NCBI GenBank assembly: GCA_044229975.1
Contig: JBGARZ010000001.1
Coordinates: 352,001 to 416,000, forward strand
Direction: 5' to 3'
Source of the DNA: Polyangiales bacterium
GTDB taxonomy: Bacteria > Myxococcota_A > Polyangia > Polyangiales > Ga0077539
Length of the DNA stretch: 64,000 bases
Shown piece by piece: positions 47,316-60,204 of this stretch. Position 1 is the stretch's first letter. Each line of letters opens with the position of its first letter. The notes below the pieces were generated by a model that was not told the origin of the DNA, searched no databases, and saw only the letters and a list, made by a program, of their open reading frames with translations. The translations under genes and the position numbers were made by a program.

Positions 47316-47768
47316 ATGTTCAGGCGGCGAGAGCGCAAGCGCGCGATGGAGCGACAGATCGAACTCACGGCGATGACCCTCCAGGGGTTCGTCGACGCGG
47401 GCATCCTCATGGCGGCGGCCGACGGCGAGATCACCACCGAGGAGTACGACCAGGTCGCAGACGTGATCTCCGGCTTCCTCGACGGGAAGGTCTCCAACCG
47501 GGACATCCGCGCCATCATCAACGAGGCCATCGAGATGCTGGAGGAGCAGGGCTACGACGCGCGCCTCGAAGCGCTCAACGCCAACCTGGTCACCGAAGAG
47601 CTGCGTGAGGTCGCCTTCCAGGTGGCCTGCGCGGTGCTCGTGGCCGACGGCGAGTACGGCGAGGACGACGAAGGCGAGGCCTACGACGACATCGCCGACG
47701 CGCTGGAGATTGATCAAGACCGCGCGCAGGAGCTCTTCGACGAGGTCGGCGCCATCTACGGCGACTAG
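47316..47768 (+). CDS. TerB-family (tellurite resistance-like) protein
   Basis: AAADGEIT.EE and ADG.....E.....IA.AL.I; highly acidic; AAGGAG RBS. Confidence 0.8.
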   Translation: MFRRRERKRAMERQIELTAMTLQGFVDAGILMAAADGEITTEEYDQVADVISGFLDGKVSNRDIRAIINEAIEMLEEQGYDARLEALNANLVTEELREVAFQVACAVLVADGEYGEDDEGEAYDDIADALEIDQDRAQELFDEVGAIYGD

Positions 47769-47820
47769 GCCCCCGCCACCGCCGCAGGAGTATAGAGAGA
47801 GCCGTAGGAGTTCTCATCTC

Positions 47821-49212
47821 GTGCGGCGGCCCTCCAACCTGTCTCTCGTCCTCGCCGCAGCCTCGCTCGCCGCGTGCGCGACCACCGCGCCCATCGAGCG
47901 GGCGGAGTCCGTCGCGCCTCACCTCCGAAACCCCGCGACCCACAGCGACCACGCGCCGACACAGGTGCATCCCCACGCGGCGCTCCCCGATCCGAGCGGG
48001 CGCGAGGAGGTCGAGCTGTCTTCGTTTCTCGCGTACGCCGACGCCCGCGCTCCGGTGTTGCAGGTCGCCCGCAGCACCCGCTCACGCGCCGCGGCCGCGC
48101 GCGTCGCCGCGAGCCCGTGGGCCCCGTCCAACCCCGAGGTGAGCCTCGCCGTCGGGCCACGCCTCGGCCTCACGGGCGTCGGCGTCGACGTGCAGGCGAG
48201 CGTCACCCAGCAGTTCTTCATCGGCGGCGAGCGAGGGCTGCGGCTCACGGCCGCCGAACGTCAGCGCGACCTCACCGACGCCGAGATCGAGCAGCTCCGC
48301 TGGGCCGTGCACTGCGACGTCCACGCGGCCTTCCACCGCGCCCTCGTGCAGCGCGACCGCGCCCTCCTCGCGGCGCGCATCCTGGCCTTCCAGGAAGACC
48401 TCCTGCGTATCGTCGAGCGGCAGATTCGCGCGGGCGAGACGGCCGGGCTCACGCTGCGTCTCACGCAGGCCGAGGTCGCCCAGGCGCGGCAGCTCACCGT
48501 CGCCGCGACGCAGGGCTACCTCAGCGCCCGCATCCAGCTCGCGCAGCTCTCGGGCTGGCCCGTCGCGCGTCCGCCGACGCCCGTCGGAGAGGTCGACGCC
48601 GCGCGCGAACCGCCCGCCCTCGACGTGCTGCTCACCACGGCGCGACAGCAGCTCCCGTCGCTCCGAACGCGCGACGCCGCCGTGCGCGAGGCCCAGGCGC
48701 GCGTGGCGGTGGCCGACCGGCAGTCGTGGCCCCAGCCCACCGTCGGACTCCAGTATCAGCGCGAGGGAAACCCCACCGCCGAGGGGCCGTACCACACCAT
48801 CCAGGGAGTGGTGTCGGTGCCCATCCCGAGCTTCCAGCGCAACCAGGGTGAGCGGGCCCGATCGCGCGCCGACGTGCGGGTCGCCGAGGCCGAGCTCGCC
48901 GCCGCGCTGTCGCTGCTCGAAGGTCAGGTGGCGCTCGCCCACAGCGAGGTCACCTCCGCGGCGCAGCGGCTGCGAAGCTACGGCACCGAGGTGCTGCCGC
49001 GCTTCGAGGAGAACCTCTCGCTGCTGCGAAGGTCGTTCGAGCTCGGGGAGATCGACGTGCTCGCCCTCTCCATCGGACGCGAGCGCTTCCTGCGCATCCA
49101 GAACGACGCGCTCGACGCGCAGCTCGATTACTTCGTCGCCCTCGCCAACCTCGAACGCACCGTCGGCGTCGACCTCTGGCCCGACGATCACAGCGCCGAA
49201 GGATCACCGTGA
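47821..49212 (+). CDS. TolC/CzcC-type outer-membrane efflux lipoprotein
   Basis: Lipobox LAAC; NP..., VSVPIP.FQRNQG, F..GEID.L; first gene of the RND operon. Confidence 0.88.
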   Translation: MRRPSNLSLVLAAASLAACATTAPIERAESVAPHLRNPATHSDHAPTQVHPHAALPDPSGREEVELSSFLAYADARAPVLQVARSTRSRAAAARVAASPWAPSNPEVSLAVGPRLGLTGVGVDVQASVTQQFFIGGERGLRLTAAERQRDLTDAEIEQLRWAVHCDVHAAFHRALVQRDRALLAARILAFQEDLLRIVERQIRAGETAGLTLRLTQAEVAQARQLTVAATQGYLSARIQLAQLSGWPVARPPTPVGEVDAAREPPALDVLLTTARQQLPSLRTRDAAVREAQARVAVADRQSWPQPTVGLQYQREGNPTAEGPYHTIQGVVSVPIPSFQRNQGERARSRADVRVAEAELAAALSLLEGQVALAHSEVTSAAQRLRSYGTEVLPRFEENLSLLRRSFELGEIDVLALSIGRERFLRIQNDALDAQLDYFVALANLERTVGVDLWPDDHSAEGSP

Positions 49213-50330
49213 TGCGACTCCTCGCGCTGCTCTTCGTGCTCGTGGCCTGCCAGCGCGCGACGCCGCCAGCGACCGCCGAACCCGTCGCCGAAGCAGGCAC
49301 TCCCCACGAGGTGCGGCTCACCGCCGAGGCCATGCGGCTCGCGGGCGTTCGCACCGGGCAGGTCGAGCGACGCGCGCTCGGTGGAGGCGTGGCGCTGCCC
49401 GCGGAGGTGCAGTTCGAGCCGAGCAGCACGGCGCAGGTCGGGCCCTTGGTGTCGGGGCGCATCACCCGCGTCGCCGTCGCGCTCGGTCAGCGCGTGACCC
49501 GCAACGAGCTGCTCGGGGTCGTGGCCTCCAACGACGTCTCGGCGGCCCGCGCCCGCCTCGGTCAGGCCCGCGCCCGTCTCTCGGCGGCCGAGGCCACGCT
49601 CCGTCGGCAGCGCGCTCTCTCGACCGAGGGCATCGGCGCGCAGCGCTCGGTCATCGACGCCGAGGCCCTGGTCGGCGAGCTCCGCGCCGAGGTCGAAGGG
49701 ACCCAACGGCAGCTCGCGCTCTTCGGCTCGGGCACCGCGGGTGAGTTGCAGCTCCGCTCGCCCATCGACGGAGTGGTGGTCGCGGTGCAGGCCGCGCTGG
49801 GTGAGACCGCGAGCCCCGAACGGGCGGTCTTCGTGGTGACCGATCCGACGCGGGTGTGGGTGCGCGGTGATGTTCCCGAGCTGGAGATCGCGCGCGTCGC
49901 GGTGGGCACCGCGGCCGTCGTCCGCCTGCACGCCTTCCCCGACCTCGCCCTCGCCGGAACCATCGTCTACGTCGCCCCGGCCCTCGATGAGCGCACGCGA
50001 TCGCTCCCCATCCGCGTGTCGCTCACCACCCCGGACGCGCGCCTGCGCAGCGGCCTCTTCGGCAGCGTCGAGCTCGTCGGCGGGTCGCCCGATGAGCGGG
50101 TGCTGGTGGTTCCGGTCGATGCGGTCGCGACCATCGAGGGTCAGCCGACGGTGTTCGTCCCGGGGGCGACTCCGCTCACCTTCCGCCCGCAGGCGGTGGA
50201 GCTCGGTCGGCGGGCCGGCGGCTTCCACGAGCTGCGCGGCGGGCTCACGGAGGGCGCGACGCTCGCGGTGAGCGGGGCCTTCACGCTGAAGAGCGCGCTC
50301 CAGGGAGCCGAGCTCGGCGAGGCCGACTGA
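49209..50330 (+). CDS. CzcB/CusB-type RND periplasmic adaptor
   Basis: Lipobox LVAC; GRITRV.V.LGQ.V, LRSPIDGVV, VWV..VPE, LD..TR. Confidence 0.9.
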   Translation: MMRLLALLFVLVACQRATPPATAEPVAEAGTPHEVRLTAEAMRLAGVRTGQVERRALGGGVALPAEVQFEPSSTAQVGPLVSGRITRVAVALGQRVTRNELLGVVASNDVSAARARLGQARARLSAAEATLRRQRALSTEGIGAQRSVIDAEALVGELRAEVEGTQRQLALFGSGTAGELQLRSPIDGVVVAVQAALGETASPERAVFVVTDPTRVWVRGDVPELEIARVAVGTAAVVRLHAFPDLALAGTIVYVAPALDERTRSLPIRVSLTTPDARLRSGLFGSVELVGGSPDERVLVVPVDAVATIEGQPTVFVPGATPLTFRPQAVELGRRAGGFHELRGGLTEGATLAVSGAFTLKSALQGAELGEAD

Positions 50331-50331
50331 G

Positions 50332-53300
50332 GTGAAGAAGATCCTCGAGCTCTGCCTGAAGTGGCGGGTGCTGGTGCTCGCCTTCGTCGTGCTCGTCACC
50401 TTCGTCGGCGCCGAGAGCATGCGGGCGCTTCCCATCGACGCGGTGCCCGACATCACCAACGTGCAGGTGCAGGTGCTGACGCGGGCGCCGTCGCTCGGGC
50501 CGGTGGACGTCGAGCGGCGCATCACCTTCCCGGTGGAGTCGTCCATGAGCGGCCTGCCGAGGCTGACCGAGGTGCGCAGCGTGTCGCGCTTCGGCCTGTC
50601 GGCGGTGACCGTGGTCTTCGAGGAGGGCACCGACCTGCTGCGTGCGCGACAGCTCATCTCCGAGCGGCTCGTGCAGGCGCGCGAACGTCTCCCCGACGGT
50701 GTGTCACCCGAGCTCGGTCCGTTGAGCACGGGGCTCGGGGAGATCTACCAGTTCGAGGTTCGCAGCGACCGGATGTGCGCCGAGGGCGCGGCCGACACCG
50801 AGGCGTGCCACACCCCGATGGAGCTGCGCTCGACGCTCGACTGGTTCATCGCGTTCCAGTTGAGGTCGGTGCCGGGCGTGGTGGAGGTCAACGCCTTCGG
50901 CGGCGAGCTGAAGACCTACGAGGTCGCGGTGCTACCCGACCGGCTGCGCGCGCTGGGCGTCTCGCTCAACGACCTCTTCCAGGCCATCGAGCGCAACAAC
51001 GCCACCTCCGGCGGCGGGTATCTCCTGCGCGCGGGCGAGCAGCTCCTCGTGCGCGGCGAAGGGCGCATCCAGTCGCTCGACGAGCTCGGCGACGTGCTCA
51101 TCGAGACGCGCGCGGACGGCGTCCCGGTGCGGGTGCGCGACGTGGCGCGGGTGCACCTGGCGCCGATGATCCGGCAGGGCGCGGTGACCCGCGACGGCCG
51201 CGGCGAGGTGGTGACGGGCATCGTGATGATGCTGGTGGACGCCAACGGCCGCGAGGTGGTGGAGAGCGTGAAGGCGCGCATCCGCGAGATCGCCCCGTCG
51301 CTCCCGCCGGGTGTGCGCATCGACACCTTCTACGACCGCGGCGAGCTGGTGCAGCGCACCATCCACACCGTCGCCAAGAACCTCGCCGAAGGGGCACTCT
51401 TCGTCGTCGCGGTGCTCTTCCTGCTGCTGGGCAGCCTGCGCGGCGGGCTCATCGTGGCGGCGGCCATTCCGTTCGCGATGCTGGTGGCCTTCACGGGCAT
51501 GCGGGCGCTCGGCCTGAGCGGCAACCTGATGAGCCTGGGCGCCATCGACTTCGGCATCGTCGTCGACGGGTCGATCATCGTGGTGGAGAGCGCGGTGGTG
51601 CACCTCGCCGCCGCCGCGAAGGGCCAGAAGCGACCGCTCTCGTACCGCGAGGCCGCCGACGTGGTGCTGCGCTCGACGCTCGACGTTCGCCGCGCCGCGC
51701 TCTTCGGCGAGGCCATCATCGTACTGGTGTACGTGCCCATCCTCACCCTCGCGGGTGTCGAGGGGAAGATGTTCAAGCCGATGGCGATCACGGTGCTGTT
51801 CGCGCTGGGGGGTGCCTTCATCGCCTCGCTCACCTTCGTGCCGGTGCTGGTCGCCTCGCTCATGCGCCAGAAGCCCGAGGACCACGAGCCCTTCGTCGTG
51901 CGGCTCATCCACGGGGTCTATCCGCGGCTGCTGTCGGCGGTGATGGGCGCGCCGCGTCTCGTGATCGCGCTGTGCCTCGCGCTGCTCGTGGTGACGGGGC
52001 TGGTGGGTTCGACCATGGGCGCGGAGTTTGTTCCGAGGCTCGACGAGGGCGCGCTGGCCATCCAGGTGATGCGGCTGCCGAGCGTGTCGCTGGAGGAGAG
52101 CGTGCGCGGGGCGACGCGCTTCGAGCGGGTGCTGCGGGAGTTTCCCGAGGTGATCACCGTGGTCACCAAGACGGGGCGCGCGGAGATCGCCACGGACCCG
52201 ATGGGCGTCGAGCTCTCGGACGTCATCGTGGCGCTGCGACCGCCCTCGGAGTGGCGCACCGCCCATACGCGCGAGGCCCTCATCGCCCGCATCTCGGCGC
52301 GGTTGACGGAGGCGCTGCCGGGGATGGGGTTCTCGTTTTCGCAGCCCATCGAGCTGCGGATGGCGGAGCTCATCAGCGGGACGCGCTCCGACGTCGCCAT
52401 CACCGTCTACGGCGACGACCTCGGCACGCTCGAACGCCTCAGCGGGCAGATTCAAGCCGTGGCCCGCGGGGTGCCCGGCGCGACGGACGTGCGCGGCGAG
52501 CAGCTGGAGGGATTGCCGACGCTGGAGGTGACGGTCGATCGCGCGGCGGCGTCACGGTACGGGGTGTCGGTACGCGACGCCCTCGACGCCATCGAGGTGA
52601 TCGGCGGGCGCGGCGTGGGCGAGGTCTACGAGGGCGAGCGGCGCATCCGGTTGCAGGTGCGACTGCCGCAAGCGCTGCGCGATGACATGGACCAGGTGCG
52701 GATGCTGCCGGTGAGCGGGCCGAGCAACACGCTGGTTCCGCTGGGGCAGATCGCGAGCATCCAGGTGGTGGACTCACCCGCGAGCGTGAGCCGGGAGGCC
52801 GTGCGGCGGCGCACCAACGTGGAGGTCAACGTGCGCGGCAGGGACCTCGCGGGCTTCGTGCGCGAGGCGCAGGAGCGGGTGCGCGAGCGGGTCCATCTGC
52901 CACCGGGCTACGTGCTGCGCTGGGGCGGCCAGTACGAGAACCTCGCGGCGGCGTCGGAGCGCCTGGGCTTCGCGGTGCCGCTCGCGCTGGGGCTCATCTT
53001 CGTGCTGCTGTACATGGCCTTCGGGGAGATGAAGACGGCGCTGCTCATCTACCTCAACGTGCCCTTCGCGGCGGTGGGCGGCGTGCTGCTGTTGCGGATG
53101 CGTGGGATGCCGTTCTCCATCAGCGCGGGCGTGGGGTTCATCGCGCTGTTCGGCATCGCGGTGCTCAATGGCGTGGTGCTGCTGACGACGGTGAAGAAGC
53201 TGCGCGCGCAGGGGCGATCGGCACTGGAGGCCGCGCGCAAGGGCGCGGAGAGTCGGCTGCGAGCGGTGGTGATGACGGCGACGGTGGCGGCGCTGGGGTT

Positions 53301-53499
53301 CATCCCGATGGCGCTGTCGTCGAGCGCGGGCGGAGAGGTGCAGCGGCCGCTCGCGACGGTGGTCATCGGGGGGTTGTTGAGCGCGACGTTCCTGACGCTG
53401 TTCGTGCTGCCGACGGTGTACGCGTACCTGTTCCGCGACGACGTGGTGGCGCCGCCCGACGAGGCCGATACGGAGACGGTCGCGCCTGTGGGGTCGTAG
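50332..53499 (+). CDS. CzcA/CusA family heavy-metal RND transporter
   Basis: LPIDAVPDITNVQVQV, NLMSLGAIDFG..VDG, GKMF.PMA, EFVPRLDEG, GFIALFGIAVLNG, EVQRPLATVVIGG. Confidence 0.96.
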   Translation: MKKILELCLKWRVLVLAFVVLVTFVGAESMRALPIDAVPDITNVQVQVLTRAPSLGPVDVERRITFPVESSMSGLPRLTEVRSVSRFGLSAVTVVFEEGTDLLRARQLISERLVQARERLPDGVSPELGPLSTGLGEIYQFEVRSDRMCAEGAADTEACHTPMELRSTLDWFIAFQLRSVPGVVEVNAFGGELKTYEVAVLPDRLRALGVSLNDLFQAIERNNATSGGGYLLRAGEQLLVRGEGRIQSLDELGDVLIETRADGVPVRVRDVARVHLAPMIRQGAVTRDGRGEVVTGIVMMLVDANGREVVESVKARIREIAPSLPPGVRIDTFYDRGELVQRTIHTVAKNLAEGALFVVAVLFLLLGSLRGGLIVAAAIPFAMLVAFTGMRALGLSGNLMSLGAIDFGIVVDGSIIVVESAVVHLAAAAKGQKRPLSYREAADVVLRSTLDVRRAALFGEAIIVLVYVPILTLAGVEGKMFKPMAITVLFALGGAFIASLTFVPVLVASLMRQKPEDHEPFVVRLIHGVYPRLLSAVMGAPRLVIALCLALLVVTGLVGSTMGAEFVPRLDEGALAIQVMRLPSVSLEESVRGATRFERVLREFPEVITVVTKTGRAEIATDPMGVELSDVIVALRPPSEWRTAHTREALIARISARLTEALPGMGFSFSQPIELRMAELISGTRSDVAITVYGDDLGTLERLSGQIQAVARGVPGATDVRGEQLEGLPTLEVTVDRAAASRYGVSVRDALDAIEVIGGRGVGEVYEGERRIRLQVRLPQALRDDMDQVRMLPVSGPSNTLVPLGQIASIQVVDSPASVSREAVRRRTNVEVNVRGRDLAGFVREAQERVRERVHLPPGYVLRWGGQYENLAAASERLGFAVPLALGLIFVLLYMAFGEMKTALLIYLNVPFAAVGGVLLLRMRGMPFSISAGVGFIALFGIAVLNGVVLLTTVKKLRAQGRSALEAARKGAESRLRAVVMTATVAALGFIPMALSSSAGGEVQRPLATVVIGGLLSATFLTLFVLPTVYAYLFRDDVVAPPDEADTETVAPVGS

Positions 53500-53505
53500 G
53501 ACGAC

Positions 53506-53798
53506 GCGCACCGGTCAGGCCCGCAGTACATGGCGCCAACGCTGCGGCGTCAGCGCGGCGCGCACCGGTCAGGCCCGCAGTCACCAGCGCCCACGCCGCA
53601 GCGTCAGCGCGGCGCGCACCGGTCAGGCCCGCAGTCACCGGCGCCCACGCCGCAGCGTTAGCGCGGCGCGCACCGGTCAGCTCCGCAGTCACCGGGGACC
53701 ACGCCGCAGCGTCAGCGCGGCGCGCACCGGTCAGGCCCGCAGTCACCAGCGCCCACGCCGCAGCGTCAGCGCGGCGCGCATCCGCTACGTTCGCAGTC
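53506..53798 (+). repeat. Left arm: ~5.4 tandem copies of a 54-bp unit
   Basis: Consensus GCGCACCGGTCAGGCCCGCAGTCACCRGCGCCCACGCCGCAGCGTCAGCGCGGC; copies start at 53506, 53560, 53614, 53668, 53722 and 53776 (partial). Confidence 0.95.
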
Positions 53799-53841
53799 GA
53801 GATCCGACAGCCCCACGAGACCGAGAATGAGTTGTTCGGAC

Positions 53842-54130
53842 GGTGACTGCGGGCGTAGCGGATACGCGCCGCGCTAACGCGCTGCGGCGTGGGCCCCGGT
53901 GACTGCGGGCGTAGCGGATACGCGCCGCGCTAACGCTGCGGCGTGGGCCCCGGTGACTGCGGGCCTGACCGGTGCGCGCCGCGCTGACGCTGCGGCGTGG
54001 GCCCCGGTGACTGCGGGCCTGACCGGTGCGCGCCGCGCTGACGCTGCGGCGTGGGCCCCGGTGACTGCGGGCCTGACCGGTGCGCGCCGCGCCAACGCCG
54101 CAGCGTGGGTCCTATGTACTGCGGGCCTGA
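53842..54130 (-). repeat. Right arm: ~5.3 tandem copies of the same 54-bp unit, inverted
   Basis: Repeating GGTGACTGCGGGCCTGACCGGTGCGCGCCGCGCTGACGCTGCGGCGTGGGCCCC is the reverse complement of the left-arm unit. Confidence 0.95.
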
Positions 54131-54618: not shown

Positions 54619-54830
54619 CGTCGCGACGCTACCACGGCGCCCACGCCCGGGACTCGGAGCGGGAGACGACGGGGACCGACGTTCGTAAGAACGCCGGACT
54701 ACGATGGTTCTGCGAGCGTGCGCGGGTGGAGGAACCAGCGCCGCGACGGCCCCCGGAGCTGGCGGGGTCTGGGTCGACCCAGGCCCCATTGGTCAGGTGC
54801 AACGTTTCTGCGGTTCCGTATGATCCCGGT

Positions 54831-55732
54831 ATGAAGCTCCGCCTCGCGTGGTGGAATACGGGGCTGGCGGGAAAAAAGCCGTCCGTCAGACAGATTTCAG
54901 ACACTGCGAAGGTGATCCGAGCGCTGATGCGGGAGGAGAGCTGCGCGGTAGTCGGCCTCTGCGAGGTCCGACCGAGCGTGTTGGAGCCGCTGTTGAAGGA
55001 GGTCCTTCAGTTTCCGTACGCGACATGGAGGCCCAACGCGCCACAACCCGACCTCCCACGACCGCACGATCTCCTCGTGCTCTTTGATCCGCGCATCGTC
55101 AGCGTGACCACTCGCGAGCCCGTGTTCGCCGAGGTGGCAGATCATCGTGTCTACGCGGGGCTCGTCTTCGACCTCGGGCTGCCGCAGGATCAGTCGATGA
55201 GGCTGGCTCTCTGCCATTGGCCTGCAGAGCTTGGCAATCACCGCCACGCCGAAAAGCTCCGGAACGCTTCCGCCTTCACGATGAAGTCCGCCCTCGCCTC
55301 AGCGGGGACGCTGCACGACTCGATAGTGCTGGGCGATTTCAACGCCGAGCCCTTCTCCGAGGCGATGGAATCGATGGGCGGTAATCGTGACCTGGAGCAG
55401 GTGCGCAAACGCAGGGGCCTCCTCTACAACGCCGGATGGCGGTGGCTGGGTTCGCGACGTCCGTTCGACGGCCGGGACCTGACCTGCTCGCCGCCGGGGA
55501 CCTACCTGATGAGGAGTGGCGGGAGAGAGAGAGTGCATGGCGCACGTTCGACCAAGTTCTCGTCTCAAGGGCGGCCCTGCTGGGGGTCGGTTGGACCCTT
55601 CGCGAAGACGAGACCGCGCCCTGGCACGGGGATGAGCTGAGAGGTTCTCGTGGTGGCTTCCTCCGCAAGCCCCTCGATCACCTGCCCCTCGTCGTGACGC
55701 TGGAGTACATTTCCCCTGTCGCTACGGAATGA
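54831..55732 (+). pseudogene. Endonuclease/exonuclease/phosphatase (EEP) family nuclease split by a frameshift in a (GA)5 tract
   Basis: First frame: AWWNT, GLCEV, CHWP, LGDFNAEPF, LYN, PGTY. Second frame continues W.TFDQVLVS..DHLP. Removing one GA at 55523-55532 fuses them (~299 aa). Confidence 0.85.
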
Positions 55733-55743
55733 GAGGCACGCAC

Positions 55744-56187
55744 ATGGGTGAGAAGTTCCTGGACGCGGTGAAGAAGGGTCAGCGCGCGGCGCTCGCAGCG
55801 GAGAAGAAGGTCGGCGAGATCCGGGCCGTCATCGCGGACCTGGACTCACAGGTTCGGCAACTCTCCGATGGAGTAGTGGGCGTCGCAGAGAGTCCTCGTC
55901 CCGCGACTCCGAAGAAATTCGTGCCCAATCTGACCAAGGGATTCGAGCCGCCACCTCGGCGCTACAACGCGCTGGTCTTCAAGAGGGGGGACGAGGAACG
56001 GGAGTTCTGTGAGTTCGAGCCAGGACCGGCTGGCTATCCGGTCGAGATCCGTTTCGACGGTGGGTTCATGCTGGCGTCGGCGCGCGTCGAACTCGTCGCA
56101 GCGCTTAAGGACGTCCTCGCCACCCCACAGGCCGGTCGTGCCCTCAACGCCCTGATCGATCCGGCGCGCGCTCGCAAGGCGGGCTGA
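55744..56187 (+). CDS. Hypothetical protein, putative partner of the EEP nuclease
   Basis: GAGAGG RBS at the EEP stop; N-terminal helix FLDAVKKG..AA..A....EI..V; C-terminal GYPV.I. Confidence 0.75.
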   Translation: MGEKFLDAVKKGQRAALAAEKKVGEIRAVIADLDSQVRQLSDGVVGVAESPRPATPKKFVPNLTKGFEPPPRRYNALVFKRGDEEREFCEFEPGPAGYPVEIRFDGGFMLASARVELVAALKDVLATPQAGRALNALIDPARARKAG

Positions 56188-56525: not shown

Positions 56526-57260
56526 TCAGGGCTGGGCGGTGGTGGCCTTGCGGGCGGCGCGGCGGGCGAGCCCGAGGAGGATCAGGTGATCGCGGCGGCG
56601 GATGATGGCGCGGGCGACCTCTGACCACTCCTTCCACCACCCGTGGAGGGCGACGAGGGCGGCGGCGCGGGCTCCGTCGGTGGCGGGCGCCGCATCGGTG
56701 GCGGTCGGCGCGGCGGGCGATGCCTGGGCCTTCTTTACGAGGGCGCGGAGTTCGGCGAGGCGCTCGGGGCCGTAGCCGCGCTGGGCGACGAGGTCGAGGG
56801 CCTTGCGGTCTTCGACGCGGGTGGCGGAGCGCGAAGGTGAGCTGGCGAGCGCGTCGAGGCGGTCGAGGAGCGTCGCGACGACGATGACGGCGCCCGCGCC
56901 CTGGGTGGCCTGGACGCCGTCGAGGACGAAGTCGGCCTGCTTGGGGAAGCGCCGCCCGAGCGACGCGCGGAGGATGCGGACGAGCGGCTCGTCGACGGCG
57001 TCGACCTGGATGATGGCGGCGCGCACGGACTCGTCGAGCGAAGCAACGAGCGCGGCGCCGGGCGTGTTGGTCTGCGGGGAGAAACCGGCGGCGTCGTGGA
57101 GGAGGCGCCAGCCCTCGCGGTGGTCGTCGTCGGTGTAGCCGCGAGCGGCGAGGGTCGCGCGAATCGCGAGGTGGGTGCCCAGGGTCTTGAGCAGATTGAT
57201 GGCGCGGGTGGGCGCCTCGTCGAGGACCTGACGGCTCGGTGCGGTGTCGGATGTGGTCAT
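56526..57260 (-). CDS. Hypothetical alpha-helical protein
   Basis: GGAGGG RBS; host-like codon usage; motifs GYT..DHREGW.LL and WW.EWS..AR..I.RRD.L..LGL. Confidence 0.75.
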   Translation of the reverse strand: MTTSDTAPSRQVLDEAPTRAINLLKTLGTHLAIRATLAARGYTDDDHREGWRLLHDAAGFSPQTNTPGAALVASLDESVRAAIIQVDAVDEPLVRILRASLGRRFPKQADFVLDGVQATQGAGAVIVVATLLDRLDALASSPSRSATRVEDRKALDLVAQRGYGPERLAELRALVKKAQASPAAPTATDAAPATDGARAAALVALHGWWKEWSEVARAIIRRRDHLILLGLARRAARKATTAQP

Positions 57261-57535: not shown

Positions 57536-59779
57536 ATGGACGCCACCCGCGCACAATCCACGTCAGCCGCCGCGAGCGAGCGCGTGCCCTGCGCGTCGTG
57601 TGGAGCCCCGGTCGACGTCCTGCGCGCCCCCTACGTCGCGGTCATCAACGAGCGCTACCGCTTCTACTGCTCGAAGAGCTGCCGCGAGCGCGATCGCCCC
57701 GCTGCCCCGGTGCCCGCGCGCGACGAGCGGCCCACCCTCACGGCGCGGCCGAGCCTCCTCGACGCGACCGACATGCTCGGCCTCGCGCGCGCCTCGCTCC
57801 CGTCGGCGGCCCTGCTCCCCGCGGCACCCCCGGTCGACCCGCGCGCCGCGGAGCTCGCGCGCGCCTCGCTCGCCCGGCCCGACCCGCCCGACCCGGTGAC
57901 GCCCGCCCTCGCCGTCGGCGCCGCGGTGTTTGGTGCGCTCGTCGGATCGCTCGACTCCCTCCCCCACCTCGCCCAGCTCGCGCTCGTCGCCGTGGCCGCG
58001 CTCGTGGGACTCGTTGTGGCCGGTCGTGAGGTGCTCCACGCGCCGCGCGACGGTGACCTCCTCGGCGGCGTGGTCGGTTGGGCGGGCGCGCTCCTCGCGA
58101 TGGGCGGCGCGCTGCGGGCGACGGGCGCGGGCTCCGTCGGCGCGGTGCGGGACGCCGCCGTGCTCGCCGCCATCGGGCCGCTCACGGCGTGGGCCGCGCG
58201 CATGCGACGCGCGGCGGGTCAGTCGCGGATGGAGGTGTTTCGCGACGCGCTCCCGGCCGACGCGCGGGTGGTGCGGCGCGGCAGCGAGGGGCTCTCGCTC
58301 GACCCGCCCACGGAGACCGTGGAGACGGCGTCGCTGCGCGCGGGCATGGAGGTCATCGTGGGGGCCGGAGCGGTCGTCCCGGTGGACGGCGTGACGCGCG
58401 CGGGCGAGGCCGAGGTGCGGCTCTGGCCCGGCGCGAGGGACACCCGACCGCGGGTCGCGGGCGACGCCGTGCTGGCGGGCGCGCGGGTGGTGCGCGGGAC
58501 GCTCCGGGTGCTGGCCACGCGGGCCGGCGACGCGGTCGCGTGGGCGCGGCTCGCGCGATGGATGACGGCGCCGCGAGAGGGTCCGCACACGGTGAAGCTC
58601 GCGCGGCGGCTGGTGCTGCTGGCTCCCGCGGGCGTGGCGGCGATGGCGCTCGCGATGGCGGTGCTGCACGTCGTGGTGCTGGGCGGCGACCCGGCGCGCG
58701 CGGCGGGCTGCGTGCTGGCGCTCGCGCCGTTGGTGCGCATGGTGACTGCCGTGCAAGCGCCCTTCGTCGAGGCGCTGGTCGAGGCCGCGCGGCGCGGGAT
58801 CGTGTTCCGCGATGCAGCGAGCGTGGAGGAGGCGGCGCGCGTGGGGACGGTAGCGTTCTGCTTCCGCGGGACGATCACCGTGGGCAGGCCCGAGCTCACC
58901 GAGGTGGTGTCGCTCGGATCGCGCAGCGAGCGCGAGGTGCTGGCCCTCGCGGCGGCCGCGGAGGAGGCCGCGCGCGAAGACCCGCTGGCGACCGCGGTGC
59001 TGCGCGGCGCGATGGCGCGCGGACTGCGGCTGGAGGGCGTTCGCCGACCGATGGTGCTGCCGGGCCTCGGCGTGACGGCCGTGAGCGCGTCGGGCGAGGC
59101 CGTGGTGGTGGGGCAACGGCGATTGCTACTGGCCGAGGGCGTGAGCGTGGCCCCCGCAGAGGACGTGTTGCTGGGCATCGAGGGCGCGGGACGCACCGCG
59201 CTCCTGGTGGCCATCGACGGTCGCGTGGAGGGCGTGCTGGGCATCGACGATCCGGTGCGCGACGAGGCGCGCTCGGCGGTGCAGGCGCTCATCGACGCGG
59301 GCTTCGAGGTCGCCCTCCTCGCGGGCACCGCGCGCGGAACCATCGAGTCCATCGGCGCCCTCCTCGACGTGAGCAACCTGCGCCCCGAAGTGAGCCCCGA
59401 CGAGCGGCCCGCGGTGGTGCGAGCCCTCTCCGAAGTGGGGCGCGGCGTGGCGGTGGTGGGTCGTCCGCGGTGGGACGGCTCGTCGCTCGCGGCGGCGGAC
59501 GTGGGCATCCAGGTGGAGGCCGCGGGCGGGGTCGGCGGCGAGACGGCGCTGGCGTTGGCCTCGGACGACCTGCGCGACGCGGCGGCGGCGCTCACCGAGG
59601 CGCGGCGGGCGCGCGACCGGGCGACGGCGGTGCTCGCCATGGGCGTGACCGGGACGGTGCTGGGCGTCTTCGTGGCGGCGGCCCTCCCGAGCTGGGGCGT
59701 GTTGGCGGTGGTGGCGGCGACGGTGGCGACGCTCGGGGGCGAGGCGATGGTGCTGCGCGCCCGGATGGGAGGCGCGTGA
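57536..59779 (+). CDS. P1B-type ATPase-fold membrane protein with YHS/TRASH-like N-terminus; catalytic motifs degenerate
   Basis: CASC..YCSKSC; VPVDG; A.RGI.F; PGLGV, VG..R.L and D.VR are retained, but FDKTGT reads FCFRGT and GDGxND reads GRPRWD. Confidence 0.8.
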   Translation: MDATRAQSTSAAASERVPCASCGAPVDVLRAPYVAVINERYRFYCSKSCRERDRPAAPVPARDERPTLTARPSLLDATDMLGLARASLPSAALLPAAPPVDPRAAELARASLARPDPPDPVTPALAVGAAVFGALVGSLDSLPHLAQLALVAVAALVGLVVAGREVLHAPRDGDLLGGVVGWAGALLAMGGALRATGAGSVGAVRDAAVLAAIGPLTAWAARMRRAAGQSRMEVFRDALPADARVVRRGSEGLSLDPPTETVETASLRAGMEVIVGAGAVVPVDGVTRAGEAEVRLWPGARDTRPRVAGDAVLAGARVVRGTLRVLATRAGDAVAWARLARWMTAPREGPHTVKLARRLVLLAPAGVAAMALAMAVLHVVVLGGDPARAAGCVLALAPLVRMVTAVQAPFVEALVEAARRGIVFRDAASVEEAARVGTVAFCFRGTITVGRPELTEVVSLGSRSEREVLALAAAAEEAAREDPLATAVLRGAMARGLRLEGVRRPMVLPGLGVTAVSASGEAVVVGQRRLLLAEGVSVAPAEDVLLGIEGAGRTALLVAIDGRVEGVLGIDDPVRDEARSAVQALIDAGFEVALLAGTARGTIESIGALLDVSNLRPEVSPDERPAVVRALSEVGRGVAVVGRPRWDGSSLAAADVGIQVEAAGGVGGETALALASDDLRDAAAALTEARRARDRATAVLAMGVTGTVLGVFVAAALPSWGVLAVVAATVATLGGEAMVLRARMGGA

Positions 59780-60204
59780 TGGCAGGGCCCGTGGTGGTGG
59801 CGGCGGCGGTGGTGATCGACGGCGACCGGGTGCTGCTGACGCAACGCCCGAGCGGGACGCACCTCGCGGGCGCGTGGGAGTTTCCCGGCGGCAAGCTGGA
59901 GGAGCACGAGGCCCCGGCGGCGGCGCTGGTGCGCGAGCTGCGCGAAGAGCTCGGGGTGGAGTCTGAGGTGGGCGAGGTGCTCGACGTGACCTGGTGGCGC
60001 TACCCCACCAAGAGCGTGCTGCTGCTCTTCTACCGCGCCCGCATCACGGCGGGCGACATCGCCCACCTCGGCGTGGCCGACCACGTCTGGGCGCGCCGCG
60101 AAGACCTCGATGGCTACTCCTTCCCCCCGGCCGACGTGGCGGTGCTCGGGAAGATCCGCGCGCTCCTCGATGCCGCAGGGCGTCCGCCGTCATCCCCGAC
60201 CTGA
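59779..60204 (+). CDS. MutT/NudG-like Nudix (d)NTP pyrophosphohydrolase
   Basis: WEFPGGKLE..E....AL.RELREELG Nudix box; FPPAD; TGATG overlap with the upstream gene. Confidence 0.9.
   Translation: MAGPVVVAAAVVIDGDRVLLTQRPSGTHLAGAWEFPGGKLEEHEAPAAALVRELREELGVESEVGEVLDVTWWRYPTKSVLLLFYRARITAGDIAHLGVADHVWARREDLDGYSFPPADVAVLGKIRALLDAAGRPPSSPT

Follow-up and report, generated by a model that had tools for sequence, protein, structure and literature searches.

What does a P-type pump do for its host once it can no longer pump? P-type ATPases are defined by a phosphorylated aspartate. In a stretch of 64,000 nucleotides from a Polyangiales bacterium (GenBank assembly GCA_044229975.1, contig JBGARZ010000001.1, positions 352,001 to 416,000; here called the window), one gene encodes a homologue of the metal-transporting P1B pumps, P0001, that lacks this residue. 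We refer to P0001 and its relatives as the dead pump. The preliminary description of the locus, made from the sequence alone, had proposed a selected pseudoenzyme. Our analysis shows that the dead pump is almost certainly a maintained protein that does not pump. From sequence comparisons we suggest that it may well be an inner-membrane scaffold, holding a cytoplasmic zinc finger with a DxLRA motif and a nucleotide-binding domain to dock a partner protein.

Catalytic residues lost and residues kept

The motif replacements in P0001 were aligned with the TGE, CPC, HP, TGD and GDGxND motifs of Archaeoglobus fulgidus CopA (Table 1). The intact P1B-type reading frame and each individual motif change of the preliminary description were recovered. 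Its statement that all essential motifs are changed is too strong, since Glu476, Pro483, Gly510, Gly512, Gly526, Asp572, Gly597, Gly642 and Asp647 are kept. The HP motif reads Asp482-Pro483, the P-domain lysine is replaced by Arg624, and of the TGD/Lys/GDGxND region only Gly597, Gly642 and Asp647 are retained. In a Pfam scan the E1-E2_ATPase and Hydrolase families passed their cut-offs. P0001 scored 69.7 bits against TIGR01494 (cut-off 62.3) and 195.8 bits against TIGR01525, under the curated cut-off of 346.25. Hydropathy and a structure model gave eight hydrophobic segments, with MA and MB before the A-domain as in P1B pumps. The AlphaFold model, built with 31 relatives, has a predicted local distance difference test score (pLDDT) of 85.5 and a predicted template modelling score (pTM) of 0.75, and places the A, P, N and membrane domains in the fold. 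CopA had been named as the structure to compare, and the closest fold was indeed that of AfCopA in the E1 state (7r0g, Foldseek E 2e-34, TM 0.68). By sequence and model, P0001 is a P1B homologue in fold and descent, yet none of the catalytic features tested places it in the active family.

Table 1. Features of the dead-pump locus (positions in the window; residues numbered in P0001)
Feature	Position	Strand	Remarks
Catalytically dead P1B-ATPase homologue P0001	57536..59779	+	747 residues, no internal stop
Four-Cys TRASH/YHS-type treble-clef finger (predicted), Cys19-Cys49	57590..57682	+	DxLRA motif at 57614-57628
Four predicted membrane helices MA, MB, M1, M2	57896..58198	+	hydropathy peaks 121-139, 145-163, 175-194, 203-221; helical in model
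Actuator-domain fold	58244..58555	+	TGE replaced by WPGA (58424-58435), CopA alignment; domain deleted in several relatives
M4 helix	58715..58762	+	CPC metal site lost (ALAPL, 58718-58732), CopA alignment
Dead phosphorylation loop FCFRGT	58856-58873	+	Cys442 in the phospho-Asp column
N-domain	58901..59245	+	Glu476, Gly510, Gly512, Gly526 kept; HP region reads EDPLA (58976-58990), His to Asp
P-domain, second half	59321..59476	+	AGT (59321-59329) for TGD, Arg624 for Lys, GRPRWD (59459-59476) for GDGxND
Predicted M5-M6 helices	59633..59758	+	no YN or MxxSS; hydropathy, structure model
MutT-like Nudix gene	59779..60204	+	141 residues; neighbour in one sub-clade only, outside the family-wide system

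The losses extend to all family members examined. We compared 214 family sequences collected by searches with 85 canonical pumps. DKTG and GDGxND were absent from all 214, versus DKTG in 84 of the 85 canonical pumps. The acceptor column never holds aspartate; it holds cysteine in 158 members and Ser, Ala, Arg, Gly, Leu or other residues in the remaining 56. The CPC site and the YN and MxxSS ligands of M5 and M6 are required for copper binding, as stated in the available part of PMC9433437. YN and MxxSS occurred in no member, versus 58 and 56 of the canonical pumps, and an xPCA remnant of the M4 site is kept in 13 members. The string TGE[SP] was found in eight, each time outside the A-domain site. 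A database search yielded 119 further proteins of Polyangiaceae type, none with DKTG or an acceptor aspartate.

Residue conservation was scored in 146 representatives with less than 60% identity. The CxRGT string singled out in the preliminary description is common (Cys in 106, Arg in 107 of 146) and not invariant. The adenine pocket of P1B pumps consists of an N-domain glutamate, the HP histidine and three glycines, according to the accessible portion of PMC5089723. In the corresponding columns Gly526 was found in all 146 representatives, Gly512 in 143, Gly510 in 141, Glu476 in 114 and His482 in 90 of 139. Arg624 is present in 134 and Asp647 in 137 of the 146. Arg503, Arg528, Leu532, Ser537, Ala539 and Glu549 of the N-domain, together with Arg579, Gln583, Asp587 and Arg624, are conserved in the family and rare in canonical pumps. 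At catalytic positions the exchange runs from acidic to neutral or basic: the phospho-Asp to Cys, a neighbouring Thr to Arg444, and Asp to Arg or His at 643.

Selection on the gene was estimated by pairwise ratios of nonsynonymous to synonymous substitution (dN/dS; Nei-Gojobori, own script) in six genomes of one genus. The ratio was 0.06-0.20 in the ten pairs among five of these genomes and 0.24-0.32 in the five pairs with the sixth. Along the gene, the lowest value was found in the dead P-loop (residues 420-455, 0.03), followed by the N-domain and M3-M4 (0.06), the finger (0.08) and the linker (0.23). Constraint is strongest in three parts: the dead P-loop, the N-domain and the finger. Loss of the catalytic residues together with purifying selection is, as far as sequences can tell, the mark of a maintained pseudoenzyme.

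A 106-member profile was then used on 251 Polyangiales genomes with a threshold of E 1e-99 or better, a stricter first look that makes the counts lower bounds. At least 221 genomes matched (two of them, G386 and G239, are unpublished and counted in this tally only), 211 with a single match. The matching genomes include small ones of 2.7-3.3 Mb (G097, G031, G027). In 218 genomes the E-value was 1e-115 or lower, beyond what canonical pumps reach, and two of the other three, when checked, were members. A renewed search of 10 of the 30 non-matching genomes gave five diverged full-length members, one fragment at a contig end and four genomes with none. Among 151 sampled genomes of the phylum, no hit from beyond the order exceeded 343 bits, and all 19 top-of-list hits fetched had DKTG and GDGxND. 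A search of plasmids at E 1e-40 gave no match to the dead pump.

The family forms one clade, supported at 100/100 by a careful 43-row tree and at 100 by a quick tree of 73 rows, and its subclades follow the host families. The careful tree places it among the copper-type pumps, in a poorly separated fork (81/76). FixI/CcoI-like pumps appeared as sister group in the quick tree (support 89), which the careful tree did not uphold. Members occur in the cultured Polyangium aurulentum, Sorangium cellulosum, Chondromyces and Minicystis rosea, where they are annotated as HAD-IC, Zn or Pb/Cd/Zn/Hg pumps. The protein of Sorangium cellulosum So ce56 (CAN90162.1, A9GHV0) groups with members in which HP and SGD are retained. 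On these sequence comparisons the dead pump is single-copy, vertically inherited and near-universal in Polyangiales. The proposed selected pseudoenzyme is strongly supported by the missing aspartate, the single clade, its spread through the order and the dN/dS values; orthologues with DKTGT and neutral evolution were both looked for, and the proposal stood. As a side observation, clusters from Bacillota and Bdellovibrionota that resemble P0001 match E1-E2_ATPase and HMA but in most cases not Hydrolase; these may represent further degenerate P1B families.

Some members have lost more than residues. The actuator domain is missing in four diverged Polyangiales members (G029, G039, G302, G304), where about 80-185 profile positions are skipped, and in all eight P1B-type members fetched from the families f60, f62 and f70 of other orders, which group with the dead pump (support 100). 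An approximately unbiased test did not separate different numbers of such losses (p 0.71). Because the domain can be deleted, the pump cycle is not the function under selection. Phosphoenzyme formation needs the aspartate; without it no phosphoenzyme can form, and since the domain that would dephosphorylate it is itself dispensable, the pump cycle is excluded. The source genome holds 16 open reading frames with DKTGT, 12 of them P1B-like, so pumping is covered there by other proteins.

The DxLRA finger and a predicted membrane scaffold

The N-terminal finger consists of a CxxC and a CxxxC pair around a beta-hairpin and is predicted to fold as a treble clef. Its nearest folds are eL24, YacG and the MYM TRASH finger with Z 3.5-4.5, which is weak given the small size of the domain, and profile comparison to TRASH/YHS-type fingers gave E 0.015-0.2. 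The finger of P0001 falls below the Pfam cut-offs of YHS, zf-FCS and TRASH; a scan of 28 fingers gave one match above the zf-FCS cut-off and two above that of DUF7576. In the 146 representatives the cysteines are conserved at 0.92-0.99, and the residues D27, L29, R30 and A31 span 0.87-0.97 (Asp27 0.89, Arg30 0.97, Ala31 0.93).

When the finger was searched alone, its profile matched 108 of 201 genomes of the class Polyangia, with none in the 34 genomes of f65 or the 12 of f20. The phylum sample gave a single match beyond the class, in G072; here (L216, 1-964, minus strand) a related cysteine finger without DxLRA is fused to what we take to be a ParA/Soj-like ATPase. Apart from this relative, the DxLRA finger was confined to the class in the genomes searched. 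Among 20 finger loci from other orders, eight encode the actuator-less dead pump (f60, f62, f70) and 12 carry the finger on unrelated proteins. These are a finger, a linker, one helix and HEAT repeats (f19, f72) or a finger, linker and helix with little or another domain (f75). Finger-helix-M23 peptidases were found in f75 as well. D27, R30 and A31 recur in the finger-HEAT, finger-M23 and finger-helix proteins of f19, f72 and f75, and the dead pump was not found in the five f19 and f75 genomes searched. Among the 120 database matches listed for the finger profile, the motif is present in 118 and a membrane-like segment in 108. Some of these matches are named Kofleriaceae.

Several of the other carriers were looked at individually. 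The finger-HEAT proteins (L169-L174 and L176-L178 of f19 and f72; P0271, P0283) have a proline-rich linker and one helix between the DxLRA finger and the repeats. In f19 the gene follows a conserved run that includes thioredoxin-like and Fam20-like genes, and a RimO-like radical SAM gene frequently comes next. The finger-linker-helix protein of f75 (L175, 7113-7556, minus strand; L179, 6059-6463, plus strand; L199; L206) has 135-150 residues. Its gene lies between an MscS channel gene with a cyclic-nucleotide (cNMP) domain and kinase-PEGA or TPR-PEGA genes, beside argH-lysA. These genomes also encode the M23 peptidases with the finger.

We propose that the dead pump descends, under selection, from a copper-type P1B pump and has given up the residues for phosphorylation, dephosphorylation and metal binding. 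Its eight helices would anchor the protein without offering an ion path. Since all architectures share the DxLRA finger at the cytoplasmic face of a membrane, the finger may well serve as a docking tag, which would bind a structural zinc and, through DxLRA, a conserved cytoplasmic partner. Retention of the adenine pocket in the N-domain, together with the new conserved patch, is most simply read as nucleotide binding without hydrolysis; the N-domain would still take up adenine nucleotide, with new arginines where the aspartate and Mg2+ had been. Less firmly, we suggest that nucleotide occupancy without hydrolysis might tune or gate the docking. In the lineage of P0001 binding is likely weaker than in the Sorangium-type members, because the HP histidine is Asp and TGD reads AGT.

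Several points weigh against such a scaffold. The partner and the ligand are predictions. Folding alone might explain why the pocket glycines are retained; P0001 has Asp in place of His482, which is absent in 49 of 139 representatives, Glu476 is absent in 32 of 146, and the f60 members no longer have Arg503. The finger might sense metal and not serve as a docking tag. The four of ten re-searched Polyangiales genomes with no member (G127, G112, G275, G176) indicate that the protein is not indispensable to every lineage, and the gene neighbours vary between clades and name no pathway or partner. Two further analyses spoke neither for nor against the scaffold: a complex prediction of the finger (residues 13-56) with the body (115-745) and zinc scored 0.00 against a mark of 0.32 and gave no verdict, and in 166 sequences the mutual information of finger and body mostly reflected ancestry, with no usable signal. 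As a tentative extension, possible though far from secured, the class Polyangia could have its own membrane docking system based on the DxLRA finger, in which the core receptor of Polyangiales would be the dead copper pump, binding ATP or ADP without hydrolysis and gating the finger's grip on a conserved partner of the cell envelope or of cell polarity. If this is true, a P-type pump has been turned into a nucleotide-sensing receptor.

Alternative functions and gene neighbourhood

Neighbouring genes were counted once per genome, at a locus that had 500 bases or more on its downstream side; the loci were chosen by score and are not a random sample. They bear on the doubtful, though possible, reading of the dead pump as a membrane-tethered metal sensor or buffer, in which the finger would bind copper or zinc reversibly and the dead body would relay or store the state. 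P1B ancestry and the YHS/TRASH type of the finger fit this reading. So does fur, which lies directly downstream in 22 of the 34 genomes of f17 and overlaps the dead-pump stop in L105; fur adjoins the dead pump, however, in none of the 51 genomes outside f17. All metal ligands in the membrane are gone, the non-ligand residues D27, L29, R30 and A31 are conserved as strongly as the cysteines, and the finger also occurs on HEAT and M23 proteins without a link to metals.

Pseudoenzymes often regulate active paralogues, and this general precedent would allow a regulatory or chaperone subunit for the genome's active P1B pumps, which were present in all 41 tallied genomes. The degenerate flippase module of P4GC-beta is likewise thought to support its fused cyclase, in the available part of PMC13466520. 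We consider such a role unlikely: no active P1B pump neighbours the dead pump in any mapped locus, and the dead pump stays at one copy while the active pumps range from one to many.

The cysteine in the acceptor column, the frequent Arg624 and Asp647 and the dN/dS of 0.03 around the loop could also point to new chemistry, with Cys442, Arg444, Arg624 and Asp647 forming a phosphocysteine or redox site, or with the P/N cleft hydrolysing another phosphorylated substrate. This is very unlikely, as the acceptor column holds other residues in 56 of 214 members and the most diverged members have also lost Arg624 and Asp647.

A partnership with the Nudix hydrolase or the arginine pathway, to which we give little chance, is suggested by the neighbours of particular clades. 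In the window the TGATG overlap noted in the preliminary description is real: the stop TGA of the dead-pump gene (59777-59779) shares one base with the Nudix ATG. The Nudix box is intact, the protein reaches 90.9 bits against TIGR00586 (cut-off 97.9), and it is the better of two Nudix matches in the source genome. A Nudix gene lies directly 3' of the dead pump in 13 of the 18 genomes of f1, the host family of the source genome (frr in four), and in none of the 67 genomes outside it. Synteny thereby rules out Nudix coupling as a family-wide function, and the functional link proposed earlier is not supported, the pairing itself being limited to one sub-clade. The gene that follows is argH in 20 of 22 genomes from 13 smaller families, where an L,D-transpeptidase gene is often found upstream, and in f17 argD or argF lies upstream in 33 of 34. 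In these clades the dead pump sits between the halves of the arg operon. In the outgroup locus L213 what is presumably argG stands directly before argH, in the slot that the dead pump takes elsewhere. The dead pump as a replacement of argG was nevertheless rejected, because argG was separately present in all five genomes tested. In the source genome argD-argF, argH and fur are far from the dead pump. The pattern of the neighbours is that of a core gene in housekeeping operons.

Even slighter are the prospects of a passive, ATP-independent carrier or channel, which the preliminary description had listed and to which the eight retained helices would lend themselves. An alignment of 106 members shows Pro, Ala, Leu and Gly as the only conserved residues of the core membrane helices, with no polar residue among them; the conserved arginines are at the helix ends. 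A decaying pseudogene, to which the loss of every catalytic motif might point, has practically no chance, being refuted, barring a codon-bias artefact, by dN/dS of 0.06-0.32, intact frames across the order and new invariant residues.

The kinase and PEGA genes named in the preliminary description as a downstream module are present after the Nudix gene of the window. No TPR family passed its cut-off there, and the kinase was absent from all four same-genus loci with 6-kb flanks and room downstream, so that the module was rejected as part of the system. Two observations were made at other loci. A divergent argininosuccinate synthase occurs in four of the five Polyangiales genomes tested (L126-L129; 64-71 bits to PF00764), and that of G031 (L125) is of the usual type with 229 bits. 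In f60 (L163-L165, L181) the actuator-less dead pump directly precedes a TrkH potassium-transport gene in L165 and a similar gene in L164 and L181.

Related systems and the surroundings of the gene

Among described proteins the P1B-1 Cu(I)-ATPases (A. fulgidus CopA, 7R0G and 3J09; Legionella pneumophila CopA, 3RFU; YHS-bearing CopA and FixI/CcoI) resemble the dead pump in fold, domain order and eight predicted helices, and share with it the N-domain glutamate, the three glycines and a Cys-rich N-terminal domain. The dead pump differs from them in lacking the phospho-Asp, TGE, CPC, YN, MxxSS and GDGxND, in having arginine for lysine, in a deletable actuator domain and in its new invariant surface residues. 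The described case that comes closest is a degenerate flippase module, found in some alveolate P4-ATPase/guanylyl cyclases (P4GC-beta of Cryptosporidium, gregarines and Tetrahymena). As far as the available text of PMC13466520 goes, it keeps the P-type body with the DKTGT aspartate and the A-domain glutamate altered, and a supporting role is suggested for it. P4GC-beta is, however, a eukaryotic protein of P4 origin whose output comes from the fused cyclase, whereas the dead pump is a free-standing bacterial P1B derivative whose only added module is a zinc finger. The finger in turn shares its CxxC...FCxxxC layout and predicted fold with the TRASH/YHS fingers (eL24, YacG, MYM-type FCS, CopA YHS). 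It differs from these by the conserved DxLRA, by its restriction to the class Polyangia in the genomes searched and by its occurrence in several membrane architectures. YacG has been solved bound to gyrase, going by the title of the entry (4TMA), which is a precedent for partner binding.

No description of the dead-pump family was found in the literature searched, which covered titles and the starts of abstracts, with most subscription journals and supplements outside its scope. A 2023 review of the superfamily names, in the part available, no bacterial P-type member without the phospho-Asp (PMC10654040). A dead P-type member here behaves as a core gene of a whole order, and because its hosts include cultured Sorangium, Polyangium, Chondromyces and Minicystis, knockouts and biochemical assays can probe a non-pumping role. 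The family also displays the stepwise dismantling of a pump, from the catalytic residues to the actuator domain and down to the parts under selection. For annotation the result is a correction, since databases label the members as Cu, Zn, Cd or Pb pumps and so inflate the metal-resistance counts of myxobacteria.

The promoter search at the dead-pump locus gave no sigma-70 match, and the single terminator match was at chance level. Upstream of the gene, the window contains an endonuclease/exonuclease/phosphatase gene (54726-55640, plus strand) and two reading frames without a Pfam family (55729-56187, plus strand; 56526-57260, minus strand). The last of these is divergent from the dead pump, and the same-genus loci have another gene upstream. 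A tandem repeat at about 53360-54100 has a unit of about 18 residues that recurs in the translations of both strands. Some 4 kb upstream of the dead pump lies a three-gene operon (47605-53499, plus strand) for an outer-membrane protein, a fusion protein and an efflux pump of the resistance-nodulation-division (RND) type, which we take to resemble czcCBA. In the same-genus loci this operon is not beside the dead-pump gene. Elsewhere in the source genome, on contig C29 at about 55000-145000, six P1B pumps with intact DKTGT lie within 90 kb, perhaps as a metal-resistance island.

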